The notes beneath the pieces were generated by a model, which did no database searches, was not told the origin of the DNA, and saw only the letters and a program-made list of their open reading frames with translations. The position numbers and the translations under genes were made by a program. From a virus, in IMG/VR virus record IMGVR_UViG_3300025137_005002, positions 1 through 64,000 of that record: a DNA stretch of 64,000 nucleotides, one strand, 5' to 3'. Shown here piece after piece: positions 1,852-22,082 of the stretch. The stretch's first letter is position 1. Each line of letters opens with the position of its first letter.

Positions 1852-2027
1852 TGGATAAAGATTTAGAAAAAGAATTAGAGATTATAAATTTAAAACTTAA
1901 AAATATCGAAACAAATCAAAAATTGTTGTTAGAGAAACTCGGTAAGCATATTGATTTTATTGATGAAACTTATGAAGGTTTGAGGAATCCTATACAAACG
2001 GCTAAAAGGTTTTTAGGTAGAAAGTAA
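1851..2027 (+). CDS. Small coiled-coil hypothetical protein (58 aa, not in ORF track)
   Basis: MDKDLEKELEIINLKLKNIE...; TAATG overlaps at both ends. Confidence 0.55.
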   Translation: MDKDLEKELEIINLKLKNIETNQKLLLEKLGKHIDFIDETYEGLRNPIQTAKRFLGRK

Positions 2028-2497
2028 TGAAACTAATTGCACATAGAGGAAATACAACAGGACCAAATACTGAAAGAGAAAACAATCCTGAGTACTTGAT
2101 TCATGCAGTTGATAAAGGATACGACTGCGAAGTTGATGTGTGGGTAGTAAATACAATTAACAATATTCAAGAAGTTTGGCTAGGGCATGATGAGCCAACA
2201 TATCAAGTAACAAAACAATTTATAAGCAATCCGGCTTTTTGGAATCATGCAAAAAATTTAGAAGCATTACATTTTATGGTAGATAACAATATACATTGTT
2301 TCTGGCACGAAGGCGATGAACGAACATTAACAAGTAAAGGATACATTTGGACATATCCTTATAAACAAGTGACGAACAAAAGTGTAATTTGTTTGCAAAA
2401 AGAGGATGACACTGTCCCTAAGAACTGTTATGGTGTATGCTCGGACTGGGTTAGCAATTATGAAAATTCGTTTTTATCAAAACCTAAATGGAGTTAG
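2027..2497 (+). CDS. Short glycerophosphodiester phosphodiesterase / PLC-like protein
   Basis: IAHRG...EN...GYDCEVDVW...LGHD motifs of the GDPD fold. Confidence 0.7.
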   Translation: MKLIAHRGNTTGPNTERENNPEYLIHAVDKGYDCEVDVWVVNTINNIQEVWLGHDEPTYQVTKQFISNPAFWNHAKNLEALHFMVDNNIHCFWHEGDERTLTSKGYIWTYPYKQVTNKSVICLQKEDDTVPKNCYGVCSDWVSNYENSFLSKPKWS

Positions 2498-2709: not shown

Positions 2710-3447
2710 ATGAAAATAGCAATTTGTTTAAGCGGACAATTAAGACAAAGTTGGCGTAAGTGTTTACCAACTTGGAATAAAATATTTAGTGAACACGAAG
2801 TACATTACTTTGGACATACATGGACAACAAGAAGTGCTCCTAACTTTGTTAAAGTAACAAAAGGTATTGATGACATTGAAACTATTGATAGGAATGAGAT
2901 ACAAGAACTTCGTAGAGAACTTAATGGTATGGAATTAATTGTACAAGAACAAATACAATTTAAGGCTGGACTTAATCAAGCACTACATGATGTAAACTAT
3001 CAAAGTCAGTTCTATGGTGTAATGGTTGCTTCACACTTAAAGAAGAAATACGAAATAGAAAACAATAGTAACTTTGACCTAGTTGTTAGATTACGTTGGG
3101 ACACTATGTTTGACGAAGATTGGCAAGTGCCTGAACCTAAAAAAGATACGTTACAAGTTATACATTTAGGATTTGAAGAAGGCAATCATAGAAGTAGATG
3201 TGGAGATTTATATTGGCAAGGACCTACAGATGTATATGATATTGCTTGTGATTTTTACAGTCATTTTCATAGACATCCTATAGAGTTTTTTGAAATGCCA
3301 GAGAAGTTACACTACGGACCAGAACACGTTTTTATGTATTATTTAAAAGAATGTAATTTAAATTTAGAACAAATATTTCCACCAATTAAATTAGTAAGAC
3401 CAAAAGCAGAACATATGACAGGAGGAGGTGATTATGAAACTCTCTAA
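2710..3447 (+). CDS. Putative glycosyltransferase-like protein (KIAICxSGxxR family)
   Basis: MKIAICLSGQLR...HTW...FDLVVRLRWD; tandem paralog of next gene. Confidence 0.5.
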   Translation: MKIAICLSGQLRQSWRKCLPTWNKIFSEHEVHYFGHTWTTRSAPNFVKVTKGIDDIETIDRNEIQELRRELNGMELIVQEQIQFKAGLNQALHDVNYQSQFYGVMVASHLKKKYEIENNSNFDLVVRLRWDTMFDEDWQVPEPKKDTLQVIHLGFEEGNHRSRCGDLYWQGPTDVYDIACDFYSHFHRHPIEFFEMPEKLHYGPEHVFMYYLKECNLNLEQIFPPIKLVRPKAEHMTGGGDYETL

Positions 3448-4186
3448 TAATATTGCAATATGTTTTAGTGGAGAACTTAGAACTTTCAAAGTTGCTATGC
3501 CACGTTTAATGGATTACTTTAGAGACACACCTGCAGACATTTATTGTCATACATGGACAACATCAGGTGATAAGTTACATAAACTAAATGACTATAAACT
3601 ATTAGAAGACATTATTGATAATAGTGTTCATCATTTAGTTAAATTAGATTATCAAACATCTATTAATCATTCAGGCCCATTTGGTAATATGCTTTACAGT
3701 ATACAAAAAGCAAACTTTATGAAACGTGAATTTGAAGTAAAGAACAATTTTAGATATGACAAAGTTATTAAATGTAGATATGATATGTTAACACCTGATG
3801 GAAAAACATTTGGTATTAGAGATATAGAAGACAGAACAATTTACTATAGTATTGGTAATAGAGGATTAGTGCCTAATGACTTTGGTAAGCACGGATTAAG
3901 TGATATTATATTTTGGGGAGATAGTCCTAGTATGGATATTGCTTGTGATACATATCGTTATTATAATTGGGAAACTTATCCATTAGCACTAAAACTGCAA
4001 GGCGGTTATACTACAGATCCAGGAGATAGTATGTTAAGTCCTGGAACATTAATATACCAACAAGCACAAAAAAGAAATATTAAAATGACGCAAATTGTTC
4101 CACAGTTAATGGAAACACTTTGGAGAACTAGTGTAGAAGATTTAGATCCAAGCACACAATTTAACGACATAAAGGCGGCGTATTAA
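3434..4186 (+). CDS. Putative glycosyltransferase-like protein (IAICxSGxxR family)
   Basis: IAICFSGELR...HTW...YDKVIKCRYD; strong GGAGGAGG RBS. Confidence 0.5.
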   Translation: MKLSNNIAICFSGELRTFKVAMPRLMDYFRDTPADIYCHTWTTSGDKLHKLNDYKLLEDIIDNSVHHLVKLDYQTSINHSGPFGNMLYSIQKANFMKREFEVKNNFRYDKVIKCRYDMLTPDGKTFGIRDIEDRTIYYSIGNRGLVPNDFGKHGLSDIIFWGDSPSMDIACDTYRYYNWETYPLALKLQGGYTTDPGDSMLSPGTLIYQQAQKRNIKMTQIVPQLMETLWRTSVEDLDPSTQFNDIKAAY

Positions 4187-5058
4187 TGCACTTAATGGTA
4201 ACAGGAGATAGTTGGACTTTCGGAAGTGAGATTAAAGATCCTGCTTTACCGGATACAGTAAGTGATTGGGATCCAGAGAATAACGAATATCGTATTCCTA
4301 AAATATGGCCCACGATGTTGAAAGATATGATTAAGGCAGATGACCTTACTAACATATCTTATCCAGCCGCAAGTAATGATAGAATTGTAAGAACAACATT
4401 AAGTTGGATTACTGAAAACTATATTAAGCCTGGTATAGACTGTGAGAACAATTTGTTTGTCATAGTTGGCTTAACAAGTCCTGAACGTAAGGACTTTTAC
4501 TATAAGGATCCTGTAGACGAACGCAACGGCGCTGGCTGGACTACTATATGGCCCAATCAAACTAACCATCCGTATATGCAAAGAGGTATGCAACCCTTCT
4601 TTGATAACTACAGAATGTACTTATGGAATAAAGAAGAGTATGTTAATCGATATGTACAACAAGTAATTACATTAGAAAATTTCTTTAAAGTGCATAAGAT
4701 TAACTACTTGTTCTTTCAAGCATTTTATAATGTAGATGAAACACAAATATCACAGTGGCAAGATAAAAACTATGTTAACAGTGAAACAGAAAAGATGACT
4801 GTAGGTAATGCTGACCCGCGTTGGAACTTTCATTACAATGGACAAAACGACGGATGGCTATGGGATCAAGTAGACAGTAAAAGATTTTATGGTAAAGAAC
4901 AAGCACCACATAGTTTCCATAGTTACATTACTAATCAAGACAAAACAGAACATAACACAGAAGTTATTACAGGTATGCACCCAAACAAATATGGACATAT
5001 GTTATGGGCAAGAGAACTAAACAAATTTATTAGAGAAAATAAACTATGCGAAATTTAA
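4186..5058 (+). CDS. SGNH/GDSL-like hydrolase/acyltransferase 1
   Basis: GDSWT block I, ASNDRI block II, C-terminal HPNKYGH. Confidence 0.65.
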   Translation: MHLMVTGDSWTFGSEIKDPALPDTVSDWDPENNEYRIPKIWPTMLKDMIKADDLTNISYPAASNDRIVRTTLSWITENYIKPGIDCENNLFVIVGLTSPERKDFYYKDPVDERNGAGWTTIWPNQTNHPYMQRGMQPFFDNYRMYLWNKEEYVNRYVQQVITLENFFKVHKINYLFFQAFYNVDETQISQWQDKNYVNSETEKMTVGNADPRWNFHYNGQNDGWLWDQVDSKRFYGKEQAPHSFHSYITNQDKTEHNTEVITGMHPNKYGHMLWARELNKFIRENKLCEI

Positions 5059-5834
5059 TTATAACGTGTGGAGATAGTTTTAGTAACGGCAGTGGATTAC
5101 CTGACTATGATTGTTTTGAAAAAAGTTTCGGTGGACTAACTGCTGAATATAAAAACGTAGAACAAAAAGTATTAGGTAGATCAGGATGTTGTAACTTTAC
5201 TATTTGGTTACAAGTTAAACACGCAGTTGAAAGAATGACAGTAGGCAACTACAAACCTTTTGTTCTTATTAGTATGACAAATGCGGCAAGAGTAGTTTGG
5301 TTCAAACCTGGACAAGATAAACCAATGGGAACAGAACCTACAATACAACATTTAAATTATGAAGACTATCCACCTTATAACAAATATACACCAGCAGAGC
5401 ACAGAAGACCTATTCCTATTACAACTGATAATAGTATGCAAAGTGAAACACTACAAAACTTAGATAGTTACTTTGATAGAGATGTTAAGGCTCGTTGGGC
5501 ACAGTTTGACAGACACGAACCAGAAGCACGTTTAAGAGTATTACAGAATTGGGTAGCAGACTTTTTCTCATTTGATATTAAGAATGAGTATGACACTGGT
5601 ATATTAACGGCGGCACACTTGCTAATGAAAACAAATAATATACCACACGTTTTTATGGGACACCAGCCAGACTTCGAAAGACTGCTACCTAAAGTAAATT
5701 ACGCAAATATTGATTGGGGTTATTACAGTAGAGAGTATCCGGATACAAGAAACACAGGACATTGTAATTACGAAGGACATAAACAAGTGTTTGAAATTCT
5801 TAAACCAAAAGTAGACGAGCAATGGCATCTTTAG
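5046..5834 (+). CDS. SGNH/GDSL-like protein 2
   Basis: GDSFS, GCCNFTI, C-terminal GHCNYEGH. Confidence 0.6.
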   Translation: MRNLIITCGDSFSNGSGLPDYDCFEKSFGGLTAEYKNVEQKVLGRSGCCNFTIWLQVKHAVERMTVGNYKPFVLISMTNAARVVWFKPGQDKPMGTEPTIQHLNYEDYPPYNKYTPAEHRRPIPITTDNSMQSETLQNLDSYFDRDVKARWAQFDRHEPEARLRVLQNWVADFFSFDIKNEYDTGILTAAHLLMKTNNIPHVFMGHQPDFERLLPKVNYANIDWGYYSREYPDTRNTGHCNYEGHKQVFEILKPKVDEQWHL

Positions 5835-6583
5835 TATATAAAGCAGATTATCCACAACTAGTAGAACCATCAGTTGCCGCGTCAACTTTAAAATGGCATG
5901 GCAGTGATAAAGAAGAATTTTACAAAAAGAATAGTAAGTTCTTTTCTAACTGGCGTTGGAAAGATATAAACATTGAATACAAGTTTAACTGGTTAGGATA
6001 TCGTACAAAGGAAATACCAGAACTGGACAAAGACTTTTTACTAACATTTGGTTGTAGTTTTACAGAAGGAATTGGAATACCTAATTTTATGACATGGCCC
6101 AATAAACTTGCAGGCTTATTAAACTTAGATGTTTATAATGCAGGTAAAGGTGGATCTGGTTTAGACATTTGTTATTACAATGCATTACTTTGGAAACAAA
6201 ATAAATTACCTTTACCAAAACAAGTTGTAATACAATTACCCGAGCCAGAAAGAAAAAGTTGGGGAACATATGTTAACAATGATATTAGTTTAGATGTTAG
6301 CAATGGCAAAGAAGATGATTGGTGGAAACATTATATAACTTCCGATGGCGAAATGCATATGAATAATATTGCGTGGTATCTAGGGTTTAATAATGTATGG
6401 CAATCGCTAGGCGTACCTGTTTTAAATATTACATGGTCACCTTATAAACATTTAGAAAATTTAGAATTTAAATTGCATTACGCAAACGTAAAAAACGATT
6501 CAACTTTACTAGCAAGAGATAATATGCATAGTGGTCCAGAGTGGCATATAAATATTGCTAATAGATGTAAGGAACTATTATGA
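5822..6583 (+). CDS. SGNH/GDSL-like protein 3
   Basis: NWLGYR, FGCSFTEG, NAGKGGSG, ARDNMHSG (DxxH). Confidence 0.65.
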   Translation: MASLVYKADYPQLVEPSVAASTLKWHGSDKEEFYKKNSKFFSNWRWKDINIEYKFNWLGYRTKEIPELDKDFLLTFGCSFTEGIGIPNFMTWPNKLAGLLNLDVYNAGKGGSGLDICYYNALLWKQNKLPLPKQVVIQLPEPERKSWGTYVNNDISLDVSNGKEDDWWKHYITSDGEMHMNNIAWYLGFNNVWQSLGVPVLNITWSPYKHLENLEFKLHYANVKNDSTLLARDNMHSGPEWHINIANRCKELL

Positions 6584-7317
6584 TAAAAACTTTGTATGCT
6601 AATGGAGATAGTTGGACATTCGGACAAGAACTTCGAGATGGCACCACTGACGATTTAGATTATAAATTTTATAACTCATGGCCCTGGCACGTTGCTCAAG
6701 GTTTGAATATACCTCAAGTAGTTAATGAAGGATTAGGTGGCGGAAGTAACGATAGAATATTTCGTAAAACTATAGACTACATTAGAAATTACAAAGGTAA
6801 ACCAAGTGAACTACAAGTAATAGTTGCTTGGACAACATATGAAAGAATTGAGATGCCTGTTGGTGTTAAGAGAAAACACGACAATGGCTACACAGAATGG
6901 GAAGAAGTTAACAATGAGTATATTAGTATACTGTTAAACAACCCACATTTAAATTTAACAAATGATGAAGACTTAGATAGATTACTGCCAGAATATCATA
7001 AGATTCGTACTATGCTGAACAGTAGTAAGGTAAATAGTTATAAGTTCTTTAACTTACAATGGTTGTTAAAACAAGTATGTGATAACTTAAACGTTAACTT
7101 ATTACAGATATATGCGTTAGACAATCCCGAATTTGTAGTAGGTAGACCCGAAGCAAATCAAGAATGGCTGGATGCAATATCCCCATACCCAGTTAGTTTA
7201 ACTAGACAACTAATGGAATACGAACACCTTAAACCCGTAAGGGCTCCCGGAAGACACCCTAATGAATTAGGACACAAAGAATTAGCAAAAACTATTGTTG
7301 CTCACTTGCAACAGTAA
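6580..7317 (+). CDS. SGNH/GDSL-like protein 4
   Basis: YANGDSWTFG, GGSNDRI, HPNELGH. Confidence 0.65.
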   Translation: MIKTLYANGDSWTFGQELRDGTTDDLDYKFYNSWPWHVAQGLNIPQVVNEGLGGGSNDRIFRKTIDYIRNYKGKPSELQVIVAWTTYERIEMPVGVKRKHDNGYTEWEEVNNEYISILLNNPHLNLTNDEDLDRLLPEYHKIRTMLNSSKVNSYKFFNLQWLLKQVCDNLNVNLLQIYALDNPEFVVGRPEANQEWLDAISPYPVSLTRQLMEYEHLKPVRAPGRHPNELGHKELAKTIVAHLQQ

Positions 7318-7466: not shown

Positions 7467-8192
7467 ATGAATATTATAATCGGAATGGCAGGAGCCGGCA
7501 GTAGATTTACAGAAGCCGGATACAACACAGTACCTAAACCTTTAGTAAGGGTTGGAGGCACAACAATGATTCAATCAGCAGTAGAGAGTTTGGACATTGA
7601 TGGAAAATATACCTTTGTTGTACGACAAGATCATATGACCGATTATCCTTGGCTCGAGCATCATTTAAAAAGTTTCGCAGACACTGTTAACATTGTTACA
7701 CTTGACCATGTTACAGAAGGAGCCGCTTGTAGTTTATTACAAGCAAAAGAATTTATAAACAACGACGAACCATTGATTAGTATCAATAGTGACCAAGTGT
7801 TACATTGGGATAGTTCAATGTTCTTAGAAAAATGCAAACTCGAGCCCCACGTGAGTTGGGTAATGACCTACCCGCATAATCATAACAAACATAGTTTTGT
7901 TAAGGTTAACGACGAAGGGCAAATAACACAAGCGGCAGAGAAAGTTATGATTAGTAACAAGGCTACTGTTGGCTTATATCATTGGAGTAAAGGAAGTTTG
8001 TTTGTTGAAGGTGCAGAACAAATGATTGCAAATAACGATAGACATAATAACGAATTCTATCTAGCACCAATTTATAATTATACAATTAAAAATAATATTG
8101 TTAAACCATATGAAGTACACGCAAGAAATTTTAGCCCTGTTGGTACTCCAGAAGATTTATCTAACTATCACAACAAGTGGTGGCGTGGATGA
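7467..8192 (+). CDS. Sugar-phosphate nucleotidyltransferase (NTP_transferase family)
   Basis: MAGAGSRF...PKPL, TEGAAC, NSDQ, AEK, NNEFY, GTPEDL. Confidence 0.85.
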   Translation: MNIIIGMAGAGSRFTEAGYNTVPKPLVRVGGTTMIQSAVESLDIDGKYTFVVRQDHMTDYPWLEHHLKSFADTVNIVTLDHVTEGAACSLLQAKEFINNDEPLISINSDQVLHWDSSMFLEKCKLEPHVSWVMTYPHNHNKHSFVKVNDEGQITQAAEKVMISNKATVGLYHWSKGSLFVEGAEQMIANNDRHNNEFYLAPIYNYTIKNNIVKPYEVHARNFSPVGTPEDLSNYHNKWWRG

Positions 8193-8884
8193 TTAAATGC
8201 TTGTATGCAAACGGTGACAGTTGGACTGAAGGAGATGAATTAGGTTTACCTTACAGTGACAATACACCAACATACAGACTTAGAAACAGTTGGCCCAAAC
8301 TACTTGCAGATAAGTTGACTATACCTGCGGTTGTAAACGAAGCAATTAGAGGAAGTAGTGGAAGTAGAATAGCAAGGCGTACAATACGTTTCATGCGTGA
8401 GTGGTGCAATAAACGACATGGTGCAGAGTTACTTGTTGTTGTTTGTTGGACTACATTTGAACGTGATGAGTTGCCAGTGGATTGGAACGGAGCAAAGTAT
8501 ATTCCTTACCACAATGTATGTTATAATATTCCTGGACATATACCAGGAGACGATAAAAAGAATTTAGACCCTATGTTAGTTGAAACAATTAATAAGATGC
8601 ATAAACCTTATACAACAACACTAGGAACAGAAAGTAGAAAACAAATGCAGTTTGAACGTATGTGGAACCTACAACAGATTGCAAAAAGTTTAAACGTAAA
8701 ATTAATTCAAACGTTTGCACTTGATCAACCAGACAGTGAATGGCTTAAAGATGTTAATTATATTACACCAAGTTTTATTGACATGACAAAGAGTCAAGGC
8801 TGGGCTTGTGGAGAAGGCGGACACACATTAGAAGAAGGGCACAAAGGATGGGCAAACTATCTGTATCAAACGATAAGTGGCTAG
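8189..8884 (+). CDS. SGNH/GDSL-like protein 5
   Basis: YANGDSWTEG, GSSGSRI, GHTLEEGH; paralog of 6580..7317. Confidence 0.65.
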   Translation: MIKCLYANGDSWTEGDELGLPYSDNTPTYRLRNSWPKLLADKLTIPAVVNEAIRGSSGSRIARRTIRFMREWCNKRHGAELLVVVCWTTFERDELPVDWNGAKYIPYHNVCYNIPGHIPGDDKKNLDPMLVETINKMHKPYTTTLGTESRKQMQFERMWNLQQIAKSLNVKLIQTFALDQPDSEWLKDVNYITPSFIDMTKSQGWACGEGGHTLEEGHKGWANYLYQTISG

Positions 8885-9132
8885 GCTGGGATCACCCTAT
8901 TGCCGTTGTTGCCGTTAATGGACGAAGTATTCTGCAGAGAACACTTGAAGTAGGAAACTACGAAACAGTAATCTTAGATAAAGAATTAATTCAGTTCTAT
9001 CCAGAGTTAATTGAAATGTGTAAAGTTTATGTTAACGATGTTAAGTTTATGGATGTACATGATCCGGATATGCTTGTTGTTAACACAGAAAAAGAATTAT
9101 ATGAATATAACATTGTAGAGGAACACAAATAA
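8848..9132 (+). CDS. Hypothetical protein
   Basis: ORF coupled to the next gene; start uncertain. Confidence 0.45.
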   Translation: MGKLSVSNDKWLGWDHPIAVVAVNGRSILQRTLEVGNYETVILDKELIQFYPELIEMCKVYVNDVKFMDVHDPDMLVVNTEKELYEYNIVEEHK

Positions 9133-9686
9133 TGATTGCATTAATTATTGCATTACCTGAAGAAGCAGAAGGTATAGACTTTAACAGAACTTACATAAGT
9201 GGAGTTGGAAAAGTTAATTCAATGATTGCTACATTTAAAGCAATTCGAGATGGAGCAACAGGAATACTTAATTATGGATCAGCAGGTTTAGTTAGTAAAA
9301 AAGATTTACACAATCAACTAATACAACCTGATATACTAATACAACGTGATATGTTTACAGAGCCACAAGCACCTAGAGGCGTTACTCCATTTGAAGAAGG
9401 AGATTATGCAGGTGCTATTGACTTAGGTACAGGTACAAACGTTACACTAGGATCCGGAGATAGTTTTGTACAAGAACCTGATCCGTGGTTTGAATATGCT
9501 AGTGTAGATATAGTAGACATGGAAGCCTACGGTATTGCCAAAACTTGTAGGAAGGTTGGCAATGTAACTTTCAAATGTTTTAAATGGGTAAGTGACTTTG
9601 CAGATGAAAATGCAATGGAACATTGGCGTAAGAATTTAGCAAACGGAAATAGTGCAATGAACGAAATAATGAAAGGCTATAAGTGA
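9132..9686 (+). CDS. mtnN: MTA/SAH (5'-deoxyadenosine) nucleosidase-like, PNP_UDP_1 family
   Basis: ALPEE, SGVGKVNS, NYGSAG, SGDSF, VDMEAYGIA, KWVSDFAD. Confidence 0.8.
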   Translation: MIALIIALPEEAEGIDFNRTYISGVGKVNSMIATFKAIRDGATGILNYGSAGLVSKKDLHNQLIQPDILIQRDMFTEPQAPRGVTPFEEGDYAGAIDLGTGTNVTLGSGDSFVQEPDPWFEYASVDIVDMEAYGIAKTCRKVGNVTFKCFKWVSDFADENAMEHWRKNLANGNSAMNEIMKGYK

Positions 9687-10012
9687 AAAAATATAAACTA
9701 GATGATATGAAAGGTGGTTGGTTTGTAGGAAACTTTGAGCCTACAGCCTTTAAGGCAAACTTTGAAGTTGGTATCCACCGACATAAGAAAGGTGAATTCC
9801 ATCAGGATCACTTTCATAAAAAAGGTACAGAGATTAACTGTATGAGAAAAGGCAAAGTAAAAATAAACGGAGAAGTGTTTAGTGAAGGAGATATTTTCAT
9901 ATTATATCCTTACGAAGTTAGTCAAGTTGAATACTTAACCGATGTAGAATTAACAGTGGTTAGAGATATTTGTGACACAGATGACAAATATATGTTTGAC
10001 ATTAAACAATAA
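9683..10012 (+). CDS. Cupin-fold protein
   Basis: GWFVGNFEP; HFH...E cupin motif 1; GDIFIL.P motif 2. Confidence 0.7.
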   Translation: MKKYKLDDMKGGWFVGNFEPTAFKANFEVGIHRHKKGEFHQDHFHKKGTEINCMRKGKVKINGEVFSEGDIFILYPYEVSQVEYLTDVELTVVRDICDTDDKYMFDIKQ

Positions 10013-10030
10013 AGAAGGTACAATACAATT

Positions 10031-11167
10031 ATGCTTGATATATACGTGGATGGAGTAGACGCAAAAGAATACTTCACAGTAACATATAAACTAGAAGGTA
10101 ACGACTTACAACGTGCGGCATTTGGGTTAGCAGTTGGACAAAGTGTGGGTAACCCTAGTGTAAGAAATGAATATGAAACACCAGAACTAATTAGTCAGTA
10201 TGCGGCAAAGATAATTGGTAAGCCTGAAGACTTCGCCGGCAAGAGTACAGGCATTGTAAAGATTGCTTGGCCTTATAGAATTATTGATTGGGAAACAGAT
10301 GGTATTGCTCAATTGATGTGTGTACTAATGGGTGGACAAATGGACATCGATTATATTCATAGATGTGAGTTATTAGATTTAGATATTGACTTTGAATTAT
10401 GTGATGCAGTTAAACCACGTTACGGATTATCAGGGTTTAGAAAACTAGTAGGTAATTACAATAAGCCGTTACTAGGATCTATAGTTAAACCTAAAACAGG
10501 ACTAACAGAGAAAGCATTAATAGAAATTATTACTGCTTTTGTTGAAGGCGGAGTTGACTTTATTAAAGAAGATGAGATAATGGCAAACCCGGCTTGTTTA
10601 CCCCTTAAGACTCGCATAGACGTCGTACAAAGGGCCTTGAAAGGTACAGACGTTGTGTACTGCTATTGTATTAATAGTGATCCATTACATCTACTAGAAA
10701 GAGCTAAAATGGTTGTCGACGGAGGTGGTAATGGAGTTCACGTTAACTTCTGGAGTGGACATGGAGCATACAAGAGTATTAACAAATTAAACTTACCTTT
10801 ATTTGTACATTATCAAAAATCAGGCGATAAAGTATTAAGTAGTGAGAAACACGCATACCGTATTAGTTGGTATGTACTTTGCAAGTTAGCAAGTATCTGT
10901 GGAGTGGACACAATCCATACAGGTATGTGGGGTGGATATTTAAGTGATGATGAAAACGAACTAAGAAGAACAATGCATATGTTGAGTAACAACAATGTTG
11001 TTCCTGCTTTAAGTTGCGGTATGACAGCAGAACTTATACCAGAAATAACAAGACGCTTTGGGGTTGACTATATGGCAAACGTTGGTGGAGCAATACACGA
11101 ACACCCAGATGGTATGAAAGCCGGAGCATTAAAATTAAGAAAAGCAATAGATAGTGTAACACAATGA
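10031..11167 (+). CDS. RuBisCO-like protein (RLP, probably not a carboxylase)
   Basis: IVKPKTGL, GGVDFIKEDE (carbamyl-Lys motif), GGAIHEHPDG..AGA; HxHR replaced by HYQK and loop-6 Lys replaced (GMWGGY). Confidence 0.88.
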   Translation: MLDIYVDGVDAKEYFTVTYKLEGNDLQRAAFGLAVGQSVGNPSVRNEYETPELISQYAAKIIGKPEDFAGKSTGIVKIAWPYRIIDWETDGIAQLMCVLMGGQMDIDYIHRCELLDLDIDFELCDAVKPRYGLSGFRKLVGNYNKPLLGSIVKPKTGLTEKALIEIITAFVEGGVDFIKEDEIMANPACLPLKTRIDVVQRALKGTDVVYCYCINSDPLHLLERAKMVVDGGGNGVHVNFWSGHGAYKSINKLNLPLFVHYQKSGDKVLSSEKHAYRISWYVLCKLASICGVDTIHTGMWGGYLSDDENELRRTMHMLSNNNVVPALSCGMTAELIPEITRRFGVDYMANVGGAIHEHPDGMKAGALKLRKAIDSVTQ

Positions 11168-11328
11168 TAGATAAAAATAAAACAAAAGATTATACAAAAC
11201 CTGAACCTGCTGAACTACAACGAAAACTTGATGAAAAGATGAAAAAGTTTTTAGAGAAAGGCGGCAAAATTGAGAAACTTGAACCAATGAAACCTACGAA
11301 AGAACAATTAAAAAGTTGGACAGTGTAG
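11164..11328 (+). CDS. SutA-like small protein (54 aa, not in ORF track)
   Basis: ...LDEKMKKFLEKGGKIEKLEP...; FLxxGGKI motif; overlaps neighbours at both ends. Confidence 0.5.
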   Translation: MIDKNKTKDYTKPEPAELQRKLDEKMKKFLEKGGKIEKLEPMKPTKEQLKSWTV

Positions 11329-11855
11329 TGATAAACTATAAGCAACATATTATAAATGTACCAGACTATCCAGTTAAAGGAATACAATTCAAAGACCTTA
11401 CTCCGTTATGGAGTGATACAGAAATACTTTTTCAATTAATTAAAGATATGGCTAAACCTTGGGAACGACGAGGCATTAGAAAAGTTGTTGCTATAGAGTC
11501 TAGAGGATTTATTATAGGTAGTGCATTAGCAATACAATTAGGTTGTGGATTTGTTCCCATAAGAAAACCTGGTAAGTTACCTAGAGATACTTTCAGTGAA
11601 GCATATGATTTAGAGTATGGATCAACAGAGATACATATCCATAAAGATGCACTTACAGATGAGAATGTTTTAATAGTAGACGACTTACTAGCAACAGGTG
11701 GAACTGCTTTAGCGGCTTATGTTTTATTACAAAAGAATTTTCCAAATGTTAATGTTGCAGGATTTAGTTTTATGGCATCATTAGATTTTTTACAAGGGCA
11801 TAGTGATTTAAGTATGTTGGGATTACCAATAGAAAGTTTAGTTAGTTATTCATGA
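11328..11855 (+). CDS. apt: Adenine phosphoribosyltransferase
   Basis: PDYP..GIQFKDLTP, IESRGF, RKPGKLP, YDLEYG, IVDDLLATGGT PRPP-binding motif; GTG start at 11328 likely. Confidence 0.93.
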   Translation: MINYKQHIINVPDYPVKGIQFKDLTPLWSDTEILFQLIKDMAKPWERRGIRKVVAIESRGFIIGSALAIQLGCGFVPIRKPGKLPRDTFSEAYDLEYGSTEIHIHKDALTDENVLIVDDLLATGGTALAAYVLLQKNFPNVNVAGFSFMASLDFLQGHSDLSMLGLPIESLVSYS

Positions 11856-12550
11856 ATTATGTTTTTGATGTAGACGGTACTCTATCCGAAAGTAGACAAA
11901 CTATAGACGTAGACTTTAGACTTTGGTTCATGAAATGGATGAAAGGTAAAGATGTTTTTATTGTTACTGGAAGTGATAGACCTAAAACTATAGAACAAAT
12001 AGGACATGAGATCGTAGATAACTGTACAATGGTATTTCAATGTGCAGGCAATAGTGTATGGCGTAACGGTATAGAAGTTTCAAGTAGTAATCTTAATGCA
12101 CCATCTGATATGGATACATGGTTAGAACAAATGGTAGACTTTAGTAGGTGTCCAGAAAAAACTGGAAATCATATTGAAAAACGTACAGGGTTAATAAATT
12201 TTAGTACTGTAGGAAGAAATGCAGTAGGACAACAACGTGATGATTATTATGAATGGGATAAAATTAATAACGAACGTGTAAGCATATGTCATCAATTTAA
12301 TGAAACCTTTCTAGGCTTTGAAGCAGAGCTAGGCGGAAACACTAGTATAGATATTCATTTAAAAGGAAAGAACAAAGCACAGGTGTATGATATTATAGGA
12401 TCACCTATGGTGTTCTTTGGAGATAGAATTCATGCAAACGGAAACGATAAACCGTTAGCAGACAAAATGGTACACCCAGAAGATGAGTGGCATCAAGTAG
12501 TTGGACCACACGAGACATGGGATATCTTATTACAAAAGTATACGGACTAA
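11852..12550 (+). CDS. HAD-IIB hydrolase, eukaryote-type phosphomannomutase-like
   Basis: FDVDGTL, VTGSD..K..EQ, IEKRTGLINFSTVGR, GGNTSIDI, FFGDR...GND. Confidence 0.8.
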   Translation: MNYVFDVDGTLSESRQTIDVDFRLWFMKWMKGKDVFIVTGSDRPKTIEQIGHEIVDNCTMVFQCAGNSVWRNGIEVSSSNLNAPSDMDTWLEQMVDFSRCPEKTGNHIEKRTGLINFSTVGRNAVGQQRDDYYEWDKINNERVSICHQFNETFLGFEAELGGNTSIDIHLKGKNKAQVYDIIGSPMVFFGDRIHANGNDKPLADKMVHPEDEWHQVVGPHETWDILLQKYTD

Positions 12551-12551
12551 T

Positions 12552-13904
12552 ATGGAACCTGCTGATCCACAAGTAATGAAAAGAAAACTGAATTCAGTTG
12601 GCCCTGGATTCTGTTTAGCCAAGTGGACTCAACTTACACTTAACTTACAAAATGGAACTGCTCACAGTTGTCATCACCCACCTGTACACCAAGTGTCTAA
12701 AGATGAAATTAAATTAGATCCTAGTTCATTACACAATTCAATATTTAAAAAACAACAACGTAAAGATATGCTCGAAGGTGGCAGACCTAAAGAGTGTGAC
12801 TACTGTTGGAGAGTTGAAGATGCAGATCCAAATGCATTAAGTGACAGACATTTAAAAAGTGCATTTAGTTGGAGCAACGAACACTTTGATAAAATTAAAA
12901 ACAATGATTGGAGTACAAACTTTCAACCTACTTATGTAGAAGTAAGTTTTGGTTATGCTTGTAACTTTAAATGTATGTATTGTAGTCCTGCTATTAGTAG
13001 TGCATGGATGCAAGAAGCAAAGCAACATGGAAGTTTTCCAACCTCTGATAATTACAATGATATCAAATGGTTAGAACGTTCAGGTCGTATGCCGATACCT
13101 GAAAGAGAAGAGAATCCATATGTAGATGCATTTTGGAAATGGTGGCCCGACTTATATCCTGCGTTACATACTTTTCGTGTTACAGGCGGTGAACCATTAA
13201 TGAACAAAAATACTTTCCGTATGATGGATTGGATTATTAATACTGATACACCTAATACAAATTTATTGTTAGGTATTAATAGTAACTTTTGTGTTGACGA
13301 CAAACTGTTTAATAAGTTTATTAGTCAAGCACACAAAGTAGTAGATAGTAACAAAGTTCGCAAGTTAGAAGTTTATACAAGTGCTGAAGCAGTTGGTAAT
13401 AAAGCAGAGTATATTAGAACTGGATTAGATTACAAGAAGTTTTTTGCTAACGTAGAACGTGTACTAGAAGAATTTAAAGATAATAATAAATTTATTATTA
13501 CGTTTATGTGTACTTACAATGCATTGAGTGTAACAACATTTGGTGGCTTCTTAAAAGACCTTATTAAGTTAAGAAAAAAGTATGGCAGAGATTGTATGTA
13601 TATTGATATACCATTCTTAAGATATCCCGAAATGATGGACGTTAAAATACTTCCTGGTAGTTTCGAAGAGTATATGATTAGTACTGTAGACTACATGGAA
13701 CAGATGGAAACTGAAGGATTAGTACATAGTAGCGAAACTGCTAAACTTAAACGTATTATAGAATACTGGCGCAGTCAACGTACTGTAGACCATAGCAATC
13801 ATAGAAAAAACTTTAAAGTTTATACTAAAGAACTTGATATTCGCAGAAGCACTAACTTTAAAGAAGTTTTCCCAGAATATGCGGGTTTCTACGATGCAAT
13901 TTAA
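12552..13904 (+). CDS. Radical SAM enzyme #1, N-terminal twitch domain (type A)
   Basis: FCLAKW...SCHH...ECDYC N-terminal Fe-S domain; CNFKCMYC; TGGEP. Confidence 0.9.
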   Translation: MEPADPQVMKRKLNSVGPGFCLAKWTQLTLNLQNGTAHSCHHPPVHQVSKDEIKLDPSSLHNSIFKKQQRKDMLEGGRPKECDYCWRVEDADPNALSDRHLKSAFSWSNEHFDKIKNNDWSTNFQPTYVEVSFGYACNFKCMYCSPAISSAWMQEAKQHGSFPTSDNYNDIKWLERSGRMPIPEREENPYVDAFWKWWPDLYPALHTFRVTGGEPLMNKNTFRMMDWIINTDTPNTNLLLGINSNFCVDDKLFNKFISQAHKVVDSNKVRKLEVYTSAEAVGNKAEYIRTGLDYKKFFANVERVLEEFKDNNKFIITFMCTYNALSVTTFGGFLKDLIKLRKKYGRDCMYIDIPFLRYPEMMDVKILPGSFEEYMISTVDYMEQMETEGLVHSSETAKLKRIIEYWRSQRTVDHSNHRKNFKVYTKELDIRRSTNFKEVFPEYAGFYDAI

Positions 13905-15099
13905 TACAATTTACATAAATAACATTAGTAAAGAAATTAACCAGCATACTGTTGATGCAATATCAACTAACTGTTATGACACTTTAAATGCTGGTACTAT
14001 GTCCTATGTAGACGAATCACTACATTCCTTGGGCATTAACAATCCGTATTTTATATTTAATGGACCATGTGAATGGTTCGGATCTTGGTCGGATTCGCGG
14101 ATAAACTTCGAAGCTCATACCGAAGTGTACTTCTTCCTCTATGAAGTGTTATCAGTATGGCACAATCACTCCAGATATAATTGTCCAGATGGTAGTATAA
14201 AAAAAGAATGTAAAATCAATGAATTCGAAATGATACAGAACTGGTGCAACAAGCACAACGTTAGTAAGTTCTCTATATTTACAAACGAGTATCGTATGTT
14301 AGAACAATTACAAAATACAAAATACACCAACTGGGCAATATATCCTTTAGATACATTTAGTCTAGGTTACTGCAAACTAAATCGTGAACCTAGCAATAAT
14401 ATTCCAGAACAACTTAATTATAAAATAAACTGCTTTACATATCGCTGGGATCAGCACAGACACGCGGCAGTTTCATTTATACATAATACACTTCCTAATG
14501 ATAGTACTATAACACACTGGCATAGAACAGATGATGTATTACTTAAATTTCCGTTAAACACTAGCAAACATTTTGAAGCATATAGTAAAGGTTGTAAAAG
14601 CCTTATGGATTTGTTGCCTATAACAAGAACTGATGCTGAAACTGAATTAGTTAGTATGCAGGATTTTGTTAACCCAAGTAAAGGAACAATAAATAATATA
14701 GCAGGATCAGATAACATAGAAGAAGCATACGAATCATCTTTTGTTACTCTTGCTTGTGAAACTAATTATGAATATCCTTGGGGACAAATAAGTGAGAAAA
14801 CTTTAGATCCTATAAAGCAAGGATCTCCAATATTATTATTAGCAGGACCACATAGTTTAGATTTATTAAAACATTGGGGTCTAAAAACATTTCACGAATT
14901 TTGGGACGAAGGCTATGACGAAGAACTAGACCCAATCAAACGAATGGACAAAGTATTTGATATCATTATTGATATTAGTAATCAATCATATAAAGAACTT
15001 ACTATAATAAGAAAACATATGAAGCCTATACTTGTCCACAATCGGAACTTAATTAGAACTGGTGCAATTAGAAAACACATAACAAAGGTATTAGCATGA
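13894..15099 (+). CDS. Putative GT-B / GT10-like glycosyltransferase
   Basis: C-terminal FVTLACETNY...ISEKT..PI...KTF..FWDEGYD motif resembling GT10 donor-binding region. Confidence 0.45.
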   Translation: MQFNTIYINNISKEINQHTVDAISTNCYDTLNAGTMSYVDESLHSLGINNPYFIFNGPCEWFGSWSDSRINFEAHTEVYFFLYEVLSVWHNHSRYNCPDGSIKKECKINEFEMIQNWCNKHNVSKFSIFTNEYRMLEQLQNTKYTNWAIYPLDTFSLGYCKLNREPSNNIPEQLNYKINCFTYRWDQHRHAAVSFIHNTLPNDSTITHWHRTDDVLLKFPLNTSKHFEAYSKGCKSLMDLLPITRTDAETELVSMQDFVNPSKGTINNIAGSDNIEEAYESSFVTLACETNYEYPWGQISEKTLDPIKQGSPILLLAGPHSLDLLKHWGLKTFHEFWDEGYDEELDPIKRMDKVFDIIIDISNQSYKELTIIRKHMKPILVHNRNLIRTGAIRKHITKVLA

Positions 15100-16241
15100 A
15101 CATAGGTTGGTTTGGTTTAGGCAAACTTGGAATGATTAGTTCTGAGATGTTAGTTAAGAAGGGGCATACAGTTACAGGGTATGACAAGGAAGAACGCTTT
15201 AGTGGGCTTGTACGAGTGTCTAAGACACCAAAAGAAGCAGTAGTAGGACAGGACTTTGTCTTTGTTGCAGTACAAACTCCACACCATAAAGACTATGGTG
15301 GAGAGAAGCCTATAACACATTTGCCAAACAAAGACTTTGGATTAGACCCTGTCAAAGAATGCTTAAAAGAAATTAACAAATATGCAACAGAAAATACTAT
15401 TGTTGTTTTAATCAGTACAATACTTCCTGGAACAACAAGAAGAGAATTCGCAGGCTTATTAGATAAAGCAAGATTAATTTATAACCCATACTTAATTGCT
15501 ATGGGCACAGTTGCTTGGGATATGGTAAATCCAGATATGGTTATCATTGGAGGCAACAAACCAAACGACACTGATGCAAAAGCATTAATAAAATTTTACA
15601 AAACAGTAATGGAGAATGATCCGCATTATAATATTGGTACATGGGAAGAAGCAGAAGCAACAAAAATATTTTATAACACATTTATTAGTGCAAGGTTAAG
15701 TCTTGTTAATATGATTCAAGACGTTGCCCAAAGTGTTGGGAATATGAATGTTGATGTTGTAACAAATAGTTTAAGTAATGCAGGATACCGAATTACCAGT
15801 GCCGCTTATATGAAAGCAGGCATGGGCGATGGTGGACCTTGTCACCCTAGAGATAATATTGCCTTAAGACATTTAGCGGAACGATTAGACCTAGGTTATG
15901 ACTTGTTCGACGCGATTGCCAAAAGTAGAGAAGTACAAGCCGAACGTATGGCAAAAGAAATATTAAAACATGGAAAGCAAATTTGCTTTACAAGTGATAC
16001 ATATAAGCCAGGAGTAACATACACTGATGGATCTTATGCACTACTAGTTCAACACTATATTGGAAAGTTGGGTGGAATGATTGTTAATGGTTTCGACCAT
16101 GCAGTTGAAGTTATGGTTATAACTCACCCAACTGACCATAACTTTAATGTTGATAAAGCAACAATAGTTTTTGATCCTTGGCGTACATACGAAGCCAAAG
16201 ACCCAAACGTGAAAGTAATACATTATGGAAACACTAGATAA
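15096..16241 (+). CDS. UDP-glucose/GDP-mannose dehydrogenase family protein
   Basis: GLGKLG Rossmann motif, AVQTP, STILPGT, KIFYN, GDGGPCHPRD catalytic Cys. Confidence 0.88.
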   Translation: MNIGWFGLGKLGMISSEMLVKKGHTVTGYDKEERFSGLVRVSKTPKEAVVGQDFVFVAVQTPHHKDYGGEKPITHLPNKDFGLDPVKECLKEINKYATENTIVVLISTILPGTTRREFAGLLDKARLIYNPYLIAMGTVAWDMVNPDMVIIGGNKPNDTDAKALIKFYKTVMENDPHYNIGTWEEAEATKIFYNTFISARLSLVNMIQDVAQSVGNMNVDVVTNSLSNAGYRITSAAYMKAGMGDGGPCHPRDNIALRHLAERLDLGYDLFDAIAKSREVQAERMAKEILKHGKQICFTSDTYKPGVTYTDGSYALLVQHYIGKLGGMIVNGFDHAVEVMVITHPTDHNFNVDKATIVFDPWRTYEAKDPNVKVIHYGNTR

Positions 16242-16752
16242 ACTTCAACCTCTAGAATATCATACAGTAGAAATTTCTCCAACTTGGGAAATAGGAGACT
16301 ACGAAGAGTTTGATTACAAAAGAGTAGAGTATGGAGACTTTAAGCAATTAGCAAAATGGAAGACTGCTGGCTTTACACATGATAACTTTACTGGTATGAT
16401 GTTTAATGACCAAAAAAGTATTCCACAATGGGCAAAGAATATAGCAACAGTATTAGAATGGAAAGACTGCGGTTTTACATTTTACAAAATGACTACTGGA
16501 GATATACTACCGCCACACTCAGACCACTTCAACAAGTATAAAGAACTTTTTGGAATAGAGTCAAGTGATGACGTATTACGTGGTTTGGTATTTTTAGAAG
16601 ATAAAAAGCCAGGACACATTTTTGAAGTAGACCAGTATAGTATGAACTGGCACAAAGGAGGTGCCGTTTTATGGAGAGGTAGAGTTCCCCATAGTGCAGG
16701 CAATATAGGATATGAACCAAGATACACGTTACAAATTACAGGACATTATTAA
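16225..16752 (+). CDS. 2OG-Fe(II) oxygenase-like protein
   Basis: HSD...H...N...R.TLQITG facial triad and 2OG-binding Arg. Confidence 0.7.
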   Translation: METLDKLQPLEYHTVEISPTWEIGDYEEFDYKRVEYGDFKQLAKWKTAGFTHDNFTGMMFNDQKSIPQWAKNIATVLEWKDCGFTFYKMTTGDILPPHSDHFNKYKELFGIESSDDVLRGLVFLEDKKPGHIFEVDQYSMNWHKGGAVLWRGRVPHSAGNIGYEPRYTLQITGHY

Positions 16753-17413
16753 TCTAGATATTCTAGAGTTATTAAAGGACTACGGCGTTGGGTGGAATAA
16801 TCCTTACGACATCATATACGAGTTTGAAAAAAGACTCGCTGAATACACAGGTGCACCTTATGTAGTTACAACAGATTGTTGTACACACGCACTTGAACTA
16901 GCCCTACGTTGGTATAAAAAGAGACACCCTAGTCATGTACCTTCAATAAAGATACCTGACCAAACATACCTTAGTATTCCAATGATGCTTGAAAAGGTTG
17001 GACTTTCTTTTAGTATTACTGAAGAAGAATGGATTGGTGAGTACCAGTTAGGACCTAATCTTCCTATATGGGATAGTGCTAGAAGATTACAAAAGAATAT
17101 GTACGAAGAAGAAACGTTCAAATGCTTGAGTTTTGGACACGGTAAACCATTGACAATTGGCAAAGGAGGTGCTATACTATTAGATAGTAGAGAAGCCTAT
17201 GATTGGCTAATTCGTGCCAGGTACGATGGTAGAGATCTAAAAGTTTCTCCTTGGGATAAAGAACACTACGAAACATTGGGTTTTCATTACTATATGTCAC
17301 CAGACCAAGCGGCGATAGGTATAGTTAAGTTAGACCAATACAAAGAAACTGCTCCTAAGAAAGTAGCATATCCAAGTATTAAGAAATGTTTCATGATAGG
17401 GAATAATAAATGA
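16712..17413 (+). CDS. DegT/DnrJ/EryC1/StrS PLP aminotransferase (short form)
   Basis: FEKRLAEYTG, CTHALELAL, DSA, SFGHGKPLTIGKGG, GFHYYM...AAIG. Confidence 0.82.
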   Translation: MNQDTRYKLQDIINLDILELLKDYGVGWNNPYDIIYEFEKRLAEYTGAPYVVTTDCCTHALELALRWYKKRHPSHVPSIKIPDQTYLSIPMMLEKVGLSFSITEEEWIGEYQLGPNLPIWDSARRLQKNMYEEETFKCLSFGHGKPLTIGKGGAILLDSREAYDWLIRARYDGRDLKVSPWDKEHYETLGFHYYMSPDQAAIGIVKLDQYKETAPKKVAYPSIKKCFMIGNNK

Positions 17414-21274: not shown

Positions 21275-21558
21275 TGGGATTTAATTTTTGGCAATCGATC
21301 CCACAACAAGAAAGGACAATCAAAATGAATGAAGTATTCATCCCCTATAGTTTTAGAACACGCAGAGGTGCTAGAATTACAAATGAAAGATATACAGAAG
21401 GCAAAAGCCTTTGGGAATCAACAAAAGAGTTTTGCAAGAACAATGTAAAGAACAAGTATGTTGTAGACAATACTGTTTACGGTAAAGGTGTTCGTGTTGA
21501 ACTTGAAGATGAAGCAGACGTAGAAGTGATACACGCATGGATCAACAAGAACTCATAG
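21274..21558 (+). CDS. Hypothetical protein
   Basis: ORF in operon context. Confidence 0.45.
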   Translation: MGFNFWQSIPQQERTIKMNEVFIPYSFRTRRGARITNERYTEGKSLWESTKEFCKNNVKNKYVVDNTVYGKGVRVELEDEADVEVIHAWINKNS

Positions 21559-21988: not shown

Positions 21989-22082
21989 TAGAAGATATGT
22001 TTTTTATAAGTGACTTTGAAATACTAGTTTATACACTAGTGTTTGGTATAGGATTTTTACTTTACATGATGTGGAATGAAAG

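Follow-up and report, generated by a model that had tools for sequence, protein, structure and literature searches.

In our study, the first 64 kb of the 76,478-bp IMG/VR virus record IMGVR_UViG_3300025137_005002 (64,000 nucleotides, hereafter the window) was found to contain a gene for a RuBisCO-like protein (RLP), carried in a cassette with a sugar-phosphate nucleotidyltransferase (NTP-transferase), a cupin, and a small protein related to glycerophosphodiester phosphodiesterase (mini-GDPD). From the sequence evidence, the chances are about even that this RLP is a functional non-carboxylating enzyme which would act as a biosynthetic feeder to a nucleotide-activation module. The individual step assignments are less certain than this general feeder reading. 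The RLP probably works inside a mobile sugar-activation cassette.

The open reading frame (ORF) of the RLP, 10031–11167, contained no internal stop. The protein matched the Pfam family RuBisCO_large (PF00016) over residues 134–376 with an E-value of 1.4e-35 and 123.5 bits (cut-off 30.1), which places it within the RuBisCO superfamily. The best solved relative was the form III RuBisCO of P. horikoshii (2cwx, 1.2e-32), and the two proteins were aligned residue by residue. The motifs quoted in an initial annotation of the DNA were present as KPK (153–155), VDFIKEDE (175–182), HYQK (260–263), GMWGGYL (298–304), and SCG (328–330), and these aligned to K175/K177, K201/D203/E204, H292–R295, K334, and S379–G381 of 2cwx, respectively. 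The conserved residues were K153, K155, K179, D181, and E182 (K175, K177, K201, D203, and E204 in 2cwx), together with S328, G330, G352, and G353 (S379, G381, G403, and G404); H296 (H327) was mostly retained across the family. The H294, R295, H298, K334, and G380 residues of 2cwx were substituted by Q262, K263, D266, Y303, and C329, respectively, and on the N-terminal side E60, T65, W66, and N123 were substituted by G36, N41, P42, and G102. Conservation alignments of 51 dereplicated sequences and of 27 diverse members of the family showed the majority of the replacement residues to be invariant, among them Q262, Y303, C329, G36, N41, and G102. The invariant residues also included K153, K155, K179, D181, E182, S328, G330, G352, G353, H356, and R370, as well as H237, N239, Y247, W280, and D293.

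Judged from these residues, the RLP is predicted to retain Mg2+ binding, Lys carbamylation, and proton abstraction next to a carbonyl, which form the enolisation core; the glycines that bind phosphate are also conserved, and the residues that serve CO2 addition and C2-C3 cleavage in RuBisCO are replaced. A substitution pattern of this kind would reflect selection and not decay. The catalytic set of bona fide RuBisCO (forms I–III) was incomplete, and only K175, K177, K201, D203, and E204 of it were kept. The RLP scored 143.9 bits against a cut-off of 497 with the NCBIfam model rubisco_III and 146.5 against 438 with PRK04208. The scores for the MtnW models were 103.7 against 513.6 bits (TIGR03332) and 131.8 against 409 bits (NF007095), and that for the OiaX/apiose-pathway RLP equivalog (NF042437) was 117.4 against 700 bits. 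The initial annotation had described a non-carboxylating RLP with a remodelled active site, and the K334Y, H294Q, R295K, H298D, E60G, T65N, and N123G substitutions bear this out. It had also named true ribulose bisphosphate carboxylase activity as a result that would speak against its reading; this activity is not predicted for a protein without the carboxylase residues.

The RLP family was found to be large. A search of a large protein database gave 2,323 superfamily matches at E <= 0.001; the lengths among the 120 matches listed were about 375–441 aa (most about 380 aa) and the identities 52–92%. Only about 30 clusters of a 50%-clustered library matched better than 1e-45, and relatives of the window RLP were carried by 193 IMG/VR loci. 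In a FastTree phylogeny of 134 sequences, the window RLP was placed in a clade of 38 entries with a support of 100 and a long stem. This clade contained viral loci together with Patescibacteria, Beckwithbacteria, a single-cell genome of Pelagibacteraceae, Verrucomicrobiae, Planctomycetales, Sphingobacteriales, and Balneola; the RLP in the locus of a Beckwithbacteria metagenome-assembled genome (L084) was 49% identical to that of the window. The MtnW-leaning sequences P0174 and P0196 and the form III-leaning sequences P0163 and P0165 were found outside the clade. Grouping with MtnW, which the initial annotation had named as a second finding against its reading, was therefore not observed.

Such a clade has been described before. 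The relevant passages of Jaffe et al. (2019; Mol Biol Evol, PMC6389311) report 'Form IV-like' proteins that are phage-borne and highly divergent from other RLPs, keep the catalytic residues only in part, and group with Beckwithbacteria sequences. These passages mention about 80 phage sequences, some of them on Myoviridae contigs, and leave the function open. The Form IV-like proteins, as described there, and the clade in our study are alike in being phage-borne and divergent and in having Beckwithbacteria members. Judged from the description in that paper and not from its authors' sequences, the window RLP is a member of this published clade. The same passages are silent on gene context, and the cassette, the fusions, and the nucleosidase and phosphoribosyltransferase insertions described below come from our analysis. 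Full-text literature searches revealed no paper that connects RLPs to nucleotide sugars and cupins. No match to the RLP was found at 1e-5 by tblastn in 50,697 GenBank phage records, and thus no cultured phage with this RLP was found there. The gp210 protein of phage Bellamy and gp205 of S-SM2 (370 aa) were considered as remote RLPs, and Bellamy gp210 was rejected at an hhalign probability of 0.1%.

Natural fusions were seen in other parts of the superfamily. The metagenomic protein P0214 (583 aa), which belongs to another RLP clade, combines a TIR_2 domain (3.3e-13) with RuBisCO_large (9.8e-46), and this suggests a defence or NAD-derived-nucleotide context. P0155 and P0168 (726 and 742 aa) carry an IF-2B family domain fused to a form III-like RuBisCO. 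This IF-2B family includes ribose-1,5-bisphosphate isomerase, and the fusion would place two consecutive steps of the AMP/pentose-bisphosphate pathway in one polypeptide.

The linkage of the RLP to its neighbours was examined in 80 viral loci with an RLP relative, searched by tblastn with the window proteins, and in nine cellular loci. The NTP-transferase was found in 79 of the 80 viral loci, the exception (L005) being cut off at a contig end, the 109-aa cupin in 62, and the 156-aa mini-GDPD in 65. The viral and cellular loci were dereplicated to 51 groups by merging those with RLPs at least 85% identical. Within 10 kb of the RLP, 50 of the 51 groups contained the NTP-transferase, 39 the cupin, and 38 the mini-GDPD (all three in 31), and hence the linkage is not due to chance. 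The commonest gene order was NTP-transferase, cupin, RLP, and mini-GDPD within about 3 kb, with the mini-GDPD directly after the RLP in most loci; in the window, about 8 kb separates the start of the mini-GDPD gene from the RLP gene downstream of it. The NTP-transferase adjoined the RLP in eight of nine bacterial loci, and a complete Verrucomicrobiae chromosome was found to contain an isolated RLP-NTP-transferase-cupin trio amid unrelated genes. Fusions were also found: RLP with NTP_transferase in P0122 (667 aa), NTP-transferase with cupin in one ORF (L040, L050, and L059), HAD_2 with NTP-transferase (L053, L058, and L069/L070), and NTP-transferase with HAD (L026). Apparent 455-aa GDPD fusions in L036, L038, and L039 contained an in-frame stop and were rejected as artefacts of ORF extension. 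The commonest further neighbours were GDP-mannose 4,6-dehydratase, FkbM and other methyltransferases, and glycosyltransferases of the GT4 and GT2 types; at least one neighbour family, found in seven loci, was the T4 clamp loader. The association of the RLP with the NTP-transferase, cupin, and GDPD-like genes claimed in the initial annotation is thus upheld by co-occurrence, by fusions, and by the same trio in bacteria. Complex prediction for the RLP and NTP-transferase gave a score of 0.00 in both runs, which is evidence neither way.

The partner proteins were assigned from motifs, profiles, and models, and their identities agreed with those proposed initially. The NTP-transferase matched PF00483 at 2.4e-09 and 37.6 bits (cut-off 21.2) and contained the G-x-G-x-R signature, with invariant G9, G11, R13, and K24 residues, which makes it a member of this family. 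Its profile matched 4evw, an uncharacterised NDP-sugar pyrophosphorylase of V. cholerae, at 2.5e-38, followed by mannose-1-P guanylyltransferases at 1.5e-11 and then HddC-like, GlmU, and RmlA enzymes; inositol-1-P cytidylyltransferase was also among the NCBIfam and PDB matches. The cupin contained invariant H43, H45, E50, and G57 residues with the HxH...E metal motif, and its model (pLDDT 94.8) has the cupin fold. The best structural matches were the phosphomannose isomerases (PMIs) of Thermococcus, 7zvy and 7zvm (about 105 aa; VIA Z 12.3 and 12.2, rmsd 2.0 and 1.9), and the profile match to 7zvm was 5.7e-4. The modelled cupin thus appears closest to small archaeal PMIs, though within 1 Z of other cupins, and it is not a member of the PMI Pfam family. 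The invariant residues of the mini-GDPD, H6, R7, E18, N19, E35, D37, H54, H74, and K76, correspond to the HRG, EN, ExD, and HD motifs of GDPD, and the profile matched the P. furiosus GDPD 7e0v at 1e-4. Its model (pLDDT 93.4) aligned to 1vd6 over 140 residues (VIA Z 10.2, rmsd 3.4); 22 GDPD/PLD entries had VIA Z of 10.2–7.9 and the next TIM barrels 6.8, which places it in the GDPD fold. It is about 100 aa shorter than the solved GDPDs, and Pfam GDPD gave no match to it. An Atlas search retrieved only unnamed viral clusters, the nearest named entry being a GDPD at 0.86, which is a lead only. The eukaryote-type phosphomannomutase (PMM) downstream of the RLP, first noted as a PMM-like HAD protein, had only phosphomannomutases among its PDB matches (best 6.6e-21). 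A PMM was found after the RLP in 10 of the 80 viral loci, corresponding to 4 of the 51 dereplicated groups.

A scan centred on the transferase gave a different picture of the module. The best-matching 80 viral loci, with transferases 44–50% identical to that of the window, were collected, and 59 of them with at least 2.5 kb on both sides were kept. The mini-GDPD was present in 56 of these 59 loci, the cupin in five, and the RLP in only two. The transferase of these loci has 458 aa and is fused to HAD_2; the mini-GDPD directly follows it, starting 1,382 bp downstream of the transferase start. The HAD_2 domain was found in 77 of 79 transferase-centred loci vs. 8 of 80 RLP-centred loci. The NTP-transferase and mini-GDPD were also found together in 17 GenBank records of cultured Synechococcus myophages, among them S-CAM9, S-PRM1, DSL-LC03, S-8S53/55/56, B3/B23, SynMITS9220M01, S-SM2, and Bellamy, and tblastn detected the RLP in none of these records. 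The cultured myophages resemble the window in having a transferase of the same family, up to 65% identical to the HAD-fused form, the mini-GDPD, and glycan islands, with a cupin in Bellamy (gp207; hhalign 99.9%, 1.4e-34). They differ in the absence of the RLP, the partners being HAD_2 fusions or class II aldolase, phosphoheptose isomerase, and kinases. In S-SM2 (L171, 148113–160865) the pair lay beside fragments of a class II aldolase and a phosphoheptose isomerase, a carbohydrate kinase, and a gene resembling transketolase, and in Bellamy (L172, 161326–175775) beside the same two kinds of fragments, a kinase, and the cupin. S-SM2 gp208 and Bellamy gp213, annotated as hypothetical, are mini-GDPDs. 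The NTP-transferase and mini-GDPD are therefore the constant core, and its upstream sub-modules seem to be alternatives to one another: the RLP, alone or together with the cupin, HAD_2, or the sets of aldolase, isomerase, and kinases. Since the pair is common without the RLP, the notion of the RLP as an obligatory member of the module did not hold; the RLP is an add-on and probably a feeder of the transferase/mini-GDPD module.

A cupin isomerase, a mutase, and a GDP-mannose pyrophosphorylase (GMPP)-like transferase together follow the logic of the GDP-mannose route. The RLP would be an extra upstream feeder on this PMI/GMPP plus PMM logic, leading to a surface glycan. In the proposed sequence, the RLP would enolise a 2-keto sugar phosphate and return an epimer or carbonyl-shifted isomer, that is, a rare ketose phosphate, with the invariant Y303 and C329 as candidate acids for reprotonation. 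The PMI-like cupin may then convert the ketose phosphate to an aldose phosphate, the PMM (a HAD domain in other phages) would set the phosphate on C1, and the nucleotidyltransferase would make an NDP-sugar for the glycosyltransferases of the island. The mini-GDPD may catalyse some phosphodiester step tied to the transferase. A glycosyl donor is indicated by the GMPP matches of the transferase, the PMI-like cupin, the eukaryote-type PMM, and the GDP-mannose 4,6-dehydratase neighbours; the sugar need not be mannose. A type II PMI is a cupin fused to GDP-mannose pyrophosphorylase. The cassette resembles type II PMI (AlgA/ManC) with PMM in its cupin isomerase fused or adjacent to NTP_transferase, its separate mutase, and its GDP-mannose dehydratase neighbour, whereas it differs in the cupin, which is only 109 aa and outside the PMI Pfam family, and in the added RLP and mini-GDPD. 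We put it at slightly less than an even chance that the RLP clade is anabolic and glycan-building, with a rare sugar phosphate formed through enolisation, by epimerisation or by migration of the carbonyl, and that it serves the transferase and mini-GDPD module as one of several interchangeable feeders. The invariant Tyr and Cys that replace K334 and G380 could conceivably be the acid pair in this reaction.

Several points weigh against this reading. As structural matches to the cupin, unrelated cupins score within 1 Z of the PMIs. The four-step scheme does not hold for every locus, as about one-quarter of them lack the cupin and most lack the PMM. A GDP-mannose-like route offers no place for the mini-GDPD, which accompanies the transferase more faithfully than any other gene, and this is the main weakness of the scheme. 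The transferase family also holds activators of non-anomeric phosphates (LicC, PntC, and IPCT), and the transferase-centred sample is possibly one HAD-fused subclade, in which case the alternation of RLP and HAD could reflect phylogeny. Every catalytic step is predicted from sequence. The nucleotide-sugar role proposed in the initial annotation stands in so far as a biosynthetic role is the best reading; the branched or keto product it had suggested is not supported.

Table 1. Genes of the RLP cassette and its surroundings, with positions in the window
Feature	Coordinates	Strand	Basis and remarks
Mini-GDPD, 156-aa helix-poor GDPD-like barrel, fourth cassette member	2027..2497	+	Motifs, 7e0v profile, model
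Sugar-phosphate nucleotidyltransferase, 241 aa, cassette hub	7467..8192	+	Pfam NTP_transferase, profile match 4evw
DUF6071/GDSL-like protein, outside conserved core	8177..8884	+	Pfam DUF6071 1.4e-11
ORF of 108 aa, no Pfam/NCBIfam match	8806..9132	+	Shared only with nearest relatives (6 loci)
MTA/SAH/5'-deoxyadenosine-type nucleosidase, 184 aa (PNP_UDP_1)	9132..9686	+	NCBIfam, 3eei alignment; insertion
Metal cupin, 109 aa	9683..10012	+	HxH...E motif, model, PMI matches
RLP, 378 aa, 'Form IV-like' phage clade	10031..11167	+	Pfam, NCBIfam, 2cwx alignment, family conservation, tree
Small Lys/Glu-rich ORF, 54 aa	11164..11328	+	79-94% aa identity in five nearest relatives, L001-L005
Adenine phosphoribosyltransferase (APRT)	11316..11855	+	NCBIfam NF002636; insertion; likely start GTG 11328
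Eukaryote-type phosphomannomutase (HAD-IIB)	11852..12550	+	Pfam PMM 5.9e-21; PDB matches

The cassette was found to be loosened in the window (Table 1), where the DUF6071 gene and the 108-aa ORF lie between the transferase and the cupin. Two further genes, for a methylthioadenosine/S-adenosylhomocysteine (MTA/SAH)-type nucleosidase and an APRT, flank the cupin-RLP part; the initial annotation of this region had named neither these two nor the DUF6071 gene and the 108-aa ORF. The nucleosidase matched NF004168 at 1.4e-19 and the MTA/SAH model NF005522 at 4.8e-17, with 70.6 and 62.2 bits against cut-offs of 129 and 161, respectively. Its MEA and SD motifs aligned to the catalytic region of the solved MTA nucleosidases 3eei and 4pr3, and its length is 184 aa vs. 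about 230 aa. The APRT is a member of NF002636 (9.3e-57; 191.3 bits, cut-off 125), and with TIGR01090 it scored 177 bits, just under the cut-off of 185.85. Nucleotide alignment (blastn) to the collinear relatives L001 and L003, at 81–87% identity, revealed gene-sized extra segments at 9131–9678 and ~11330–11851 of the window, and the latter was also without a counterpart in L041. None of the 89 other loci (80 viral and nine cellular) contained the nucleosidase, not even those of relatives with an RLP 90–92% identical. At the position of the APRT, L007, L008, and L024 carry an APRT only 36% identical. The nucleosidase and APRT are thus single-gene insertions. The start of the nucleosidase overlaps the preceding stop (TAATG), its stop overlaps the start of the cupin (GTGA), the start of the 54-aa ORF overlaps the RLP stop (ATGA), and the GTG start of the APRT overlaps the stop of the 54-aa ORF; the TAATG, GTGA, TAGTG, and ATGA junctions couple both insertions translationally to their neighbours. 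A third gene-sized segment at 5838–6573 (ORF 5822–6583, no Pfam match) was absent from L001 and present in L003.

The window was also found to contain an array of about 17 radical S-adenosylmethionine (SAM) ORFs at 12501–13904 and 23949–48528, all on the plus strand and mostly overlapping, which is unusually dense for a phage. A record-wide Pfam search gave 14 radical SAM matches, 11 of them above the cut-off, and more were found by Pfam and PHROGs. Several of these ORFs have about 110–160 extra N-terminal residues, and one has a SPASM domain. Radical SAM enzymes are inhibited by the 5'-deoxyadenosine that they release, and MTA/SAH nucleosidase removes this product. The adenine freed by a nucleosidase can be converted back to AMP by an APRT, and the two enzymes are, therefore, a sensible clearance pair. 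The likeliest role of the two insertions is adenine salvage, with removal of the 5'-deoxyadenosine, SAH, and MTA made by about 17 radical SAM enzymes, and they are outside the conserved RLP pathway.

The tight pairing of the mini-GDPD with the transferase, in 56 of 59 loci and in the same 17 cultured phage records, together with its full GDPD catalytic motif set, would also fit a product other than a glycosyl donor. The module might make an NDP-activated ketose or polyol phosphate, to be attached through a phosphodiester as a decoration in the manner of ribitol-P, arabinitol-P, or phosphocholine. In that case the ketose phosphate would come from the RLP, or the RLP would work on an NDP-linked ketose, and the phosphodiester would be transferred or edited by the mini-GDPD. 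The mini-GDPD step left unexplained above is the main support for this product. The substrates of GDPD chemistry are alcohol-phosphate-alcohol diesters, and CDP-arabinitol is known to be made by way of a xylulose-5-P cytidylyltransferase. Most RLP cassettes are also without a mutase or HAD (HAD_2 8/80, PMM 10/80), as expected where no anomeric phosphate is needed. However, the matches of the transferase profile that come next to 4evw are aldose-1-P enzymes (GMPP, HddC-like, GlmU, and RmlA), the PMM, the PMI-like cupin, and the GDP-mannose dehydratase neighbours point to a glycosyl donor, and we know of no GDPD that acts as a transferase in glycan synthesis; we consider this product unlikely. 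There is next to no chance that the gene encodes a genuine CO2-fixing RuBisCO serving as a photosynthesis-boosting auxiliary gene. The protein belongs to the RuBisCO large-subunit superfamily, but K334, H294, E60, T65, and N123 are all replaced, and the 144–147 bits obtained are set against RuBisCO model cut-offs of 438–497.

The adenine genes of the window raise the question of salvage. The nucleosidase might free 5-deoxyribose or methylthioribose, the RLP and cupin might process a phosphorylated ketose derived from it, and the APRT would recycle the adenine. The translationally coupled position of the nucleosidase and APRT on both sides of the cupin-RLP part, the radical SAM genes downstream, and the second, divergent APRT at the same position in L007, L008, and L024 all speak for such SAM by-product disposal, and RLP-plus-cupin salvage pathways are reportedly documented. 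In the MTA-isoprenoid shunt of R. rubrum, the DeepYkr RLP is a 1,3-isomerase and the cupin a methylsulfurylase. The window resembles this shunt and the MtnW/MtnX/MtnD system of B. subtilis in having a potentially enolising/isomerising RLP beside a small cupin, an MTA-type nucleosidase, and a HAD enzyme. It differs in that MTA phosphorylase (MtnP), MtnK, MtnA, and MtnB were not found in the record, in the clade of the RLP, which is separate from MtnW-like sequences, in the obligate nucleotidyltransferase, and in the nucleosidase being a recent insertion; of a DeepYkr-type context only the adjacent cupin is present, with MtnP and MtnA absent from the record. MtnA/IF-2B, MtnK/APH, and class II aldolase were likewise not found in the record, which is only 21% complete. 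Salvage has no use for the constant partner, the nucleotidyltransferase, the cassette occurs commonly in phages without a visible radical SAM array, and the nucleosidase is lacking even from the closest relatives. A conserved 5'-deoxyadenosine salvage operon of nucleosidase, cupin, RLP, and APRT was dropped as the principal interpretation on the count of 0/89 for the nucleosidase. Disposal is thus improbable, and a freed 5-deoxy or methylthio sugar feeding the RLP directly is a minority possibility. Even less credible is a non-carboxylating branch of the archaeal and candidate phyla radiation (CPR) nucleotide (AMP/pentose-bisphosphate) pathway, in which a nucleotide would give up its adenine and the RLP would handle a ribose bisphosphate-derived ketose for carbon salvage. 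The nearest solved relative is a form III RuBisCO, the clade holds Patescibacteria and Beckwithbacteria, and adenine-handling genes are adjacent in the window; yet no ribose-1,5-bisphosphate isomerase (IF-2B) was found in the record, the cleavage and carboxylation residues are lost, hence no 3-phosphoglycerate is expected, the adenine genes are recent insertions, and the surrounding genes are glycan genes.

Other genes of the island were also noted. Three DUF6071 paralogues were found, at 4186–5058, 6580–7317, and 8177–8884, the first two scoring 2.1e-22 and 7.8e-09, and the family occurred in 13 of 90 loci. Tandem paralogues at 2710–3447 and 3428–4186 shared 23% identity (E 2e-13) and had no Pfam match; single-linkage clustering had joined them to the mini-GDPD, a relation that was rejected, as they are unrelated to it. 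Between the cassette and the radical SAM array, tailoring genes occupied 15096–22838. These included UDP-glucose/GDP-mannose dehydrogenase-like ORFs at 15096–16241 and, in shorter form, 22083–22838, an Asp/Arg hydroxylase-like ORF at 16225, an amidinotransferase/ADI-like ORF at 17410, and a carbamoyltransferase at 18381–19922, which recurs in 15 of the 80 RLP loci. The ORF at 16712 (233 aa) matched only the middle (163–243 of 360) of the DegT aminotransferase profile. Between 1800 and 13000, promoter- and terminator-like sites were not more frequent than in shuffled sequence.

The CheckV completeness of the record was 21%, and for 76,478 bp this implies a genome of roughly 300–400 kb. The close relative L003, 81–87% identical in nucleotides across the region, comes from a contig of 306,714 bp. 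The record was found to contain phage-type genes for thymidylate synthase and a CobS-like ATPase with a VWA partner, the ATPase being 49.5% identical to that of PA5oct-like jumbo phages. The RLP gene is thus carried by a very large phage. Up to about 52 kb, nearly every gene lies on the plus strand. At ~52000 the gene orientation and the GC skew both flip (cumulative skew maximum at 50–52 kb), and the minus-strand block beyond contains the thymidylate synthase, a VWA/metallopeptidase protein, and the CobS-like ATPase.

To our knowledge, all characterised RLPs are catabolic or serve salvage, in methionine salvage, the MTA-isoprenoid shunt, and the degradation of acid sugars and apiose. If our reading is true, a clade locked to a nucleotidyltransferase in glycan islands would give the RuBisCO superfamily a biosynthetic role, a new kind of job. 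Metagenomes contain thousands of members of the clade, which is found in phages, in a single-cell genome of Pelagibacteraceae, in Verrucomicrobiae, and in CPR bacteria. The gene family itself has already been published (Jaffe et al., 2019), and it is the predicted biosynthetic role that would be new. The nucleosidase and APRT beside the array of roughly 17 radical SAM genes would be a separate case, that of a phage carrying its own clearance of SAM by-products. With the RLP as an add-on to a transferase and mini-GDPD core, cassettes with and without the RLP can be compared for their products. If the proposed role is true, there would be an undescribed activated sugar or sugar phosphate on the surfaces of infected marine and freshwater bacteria.

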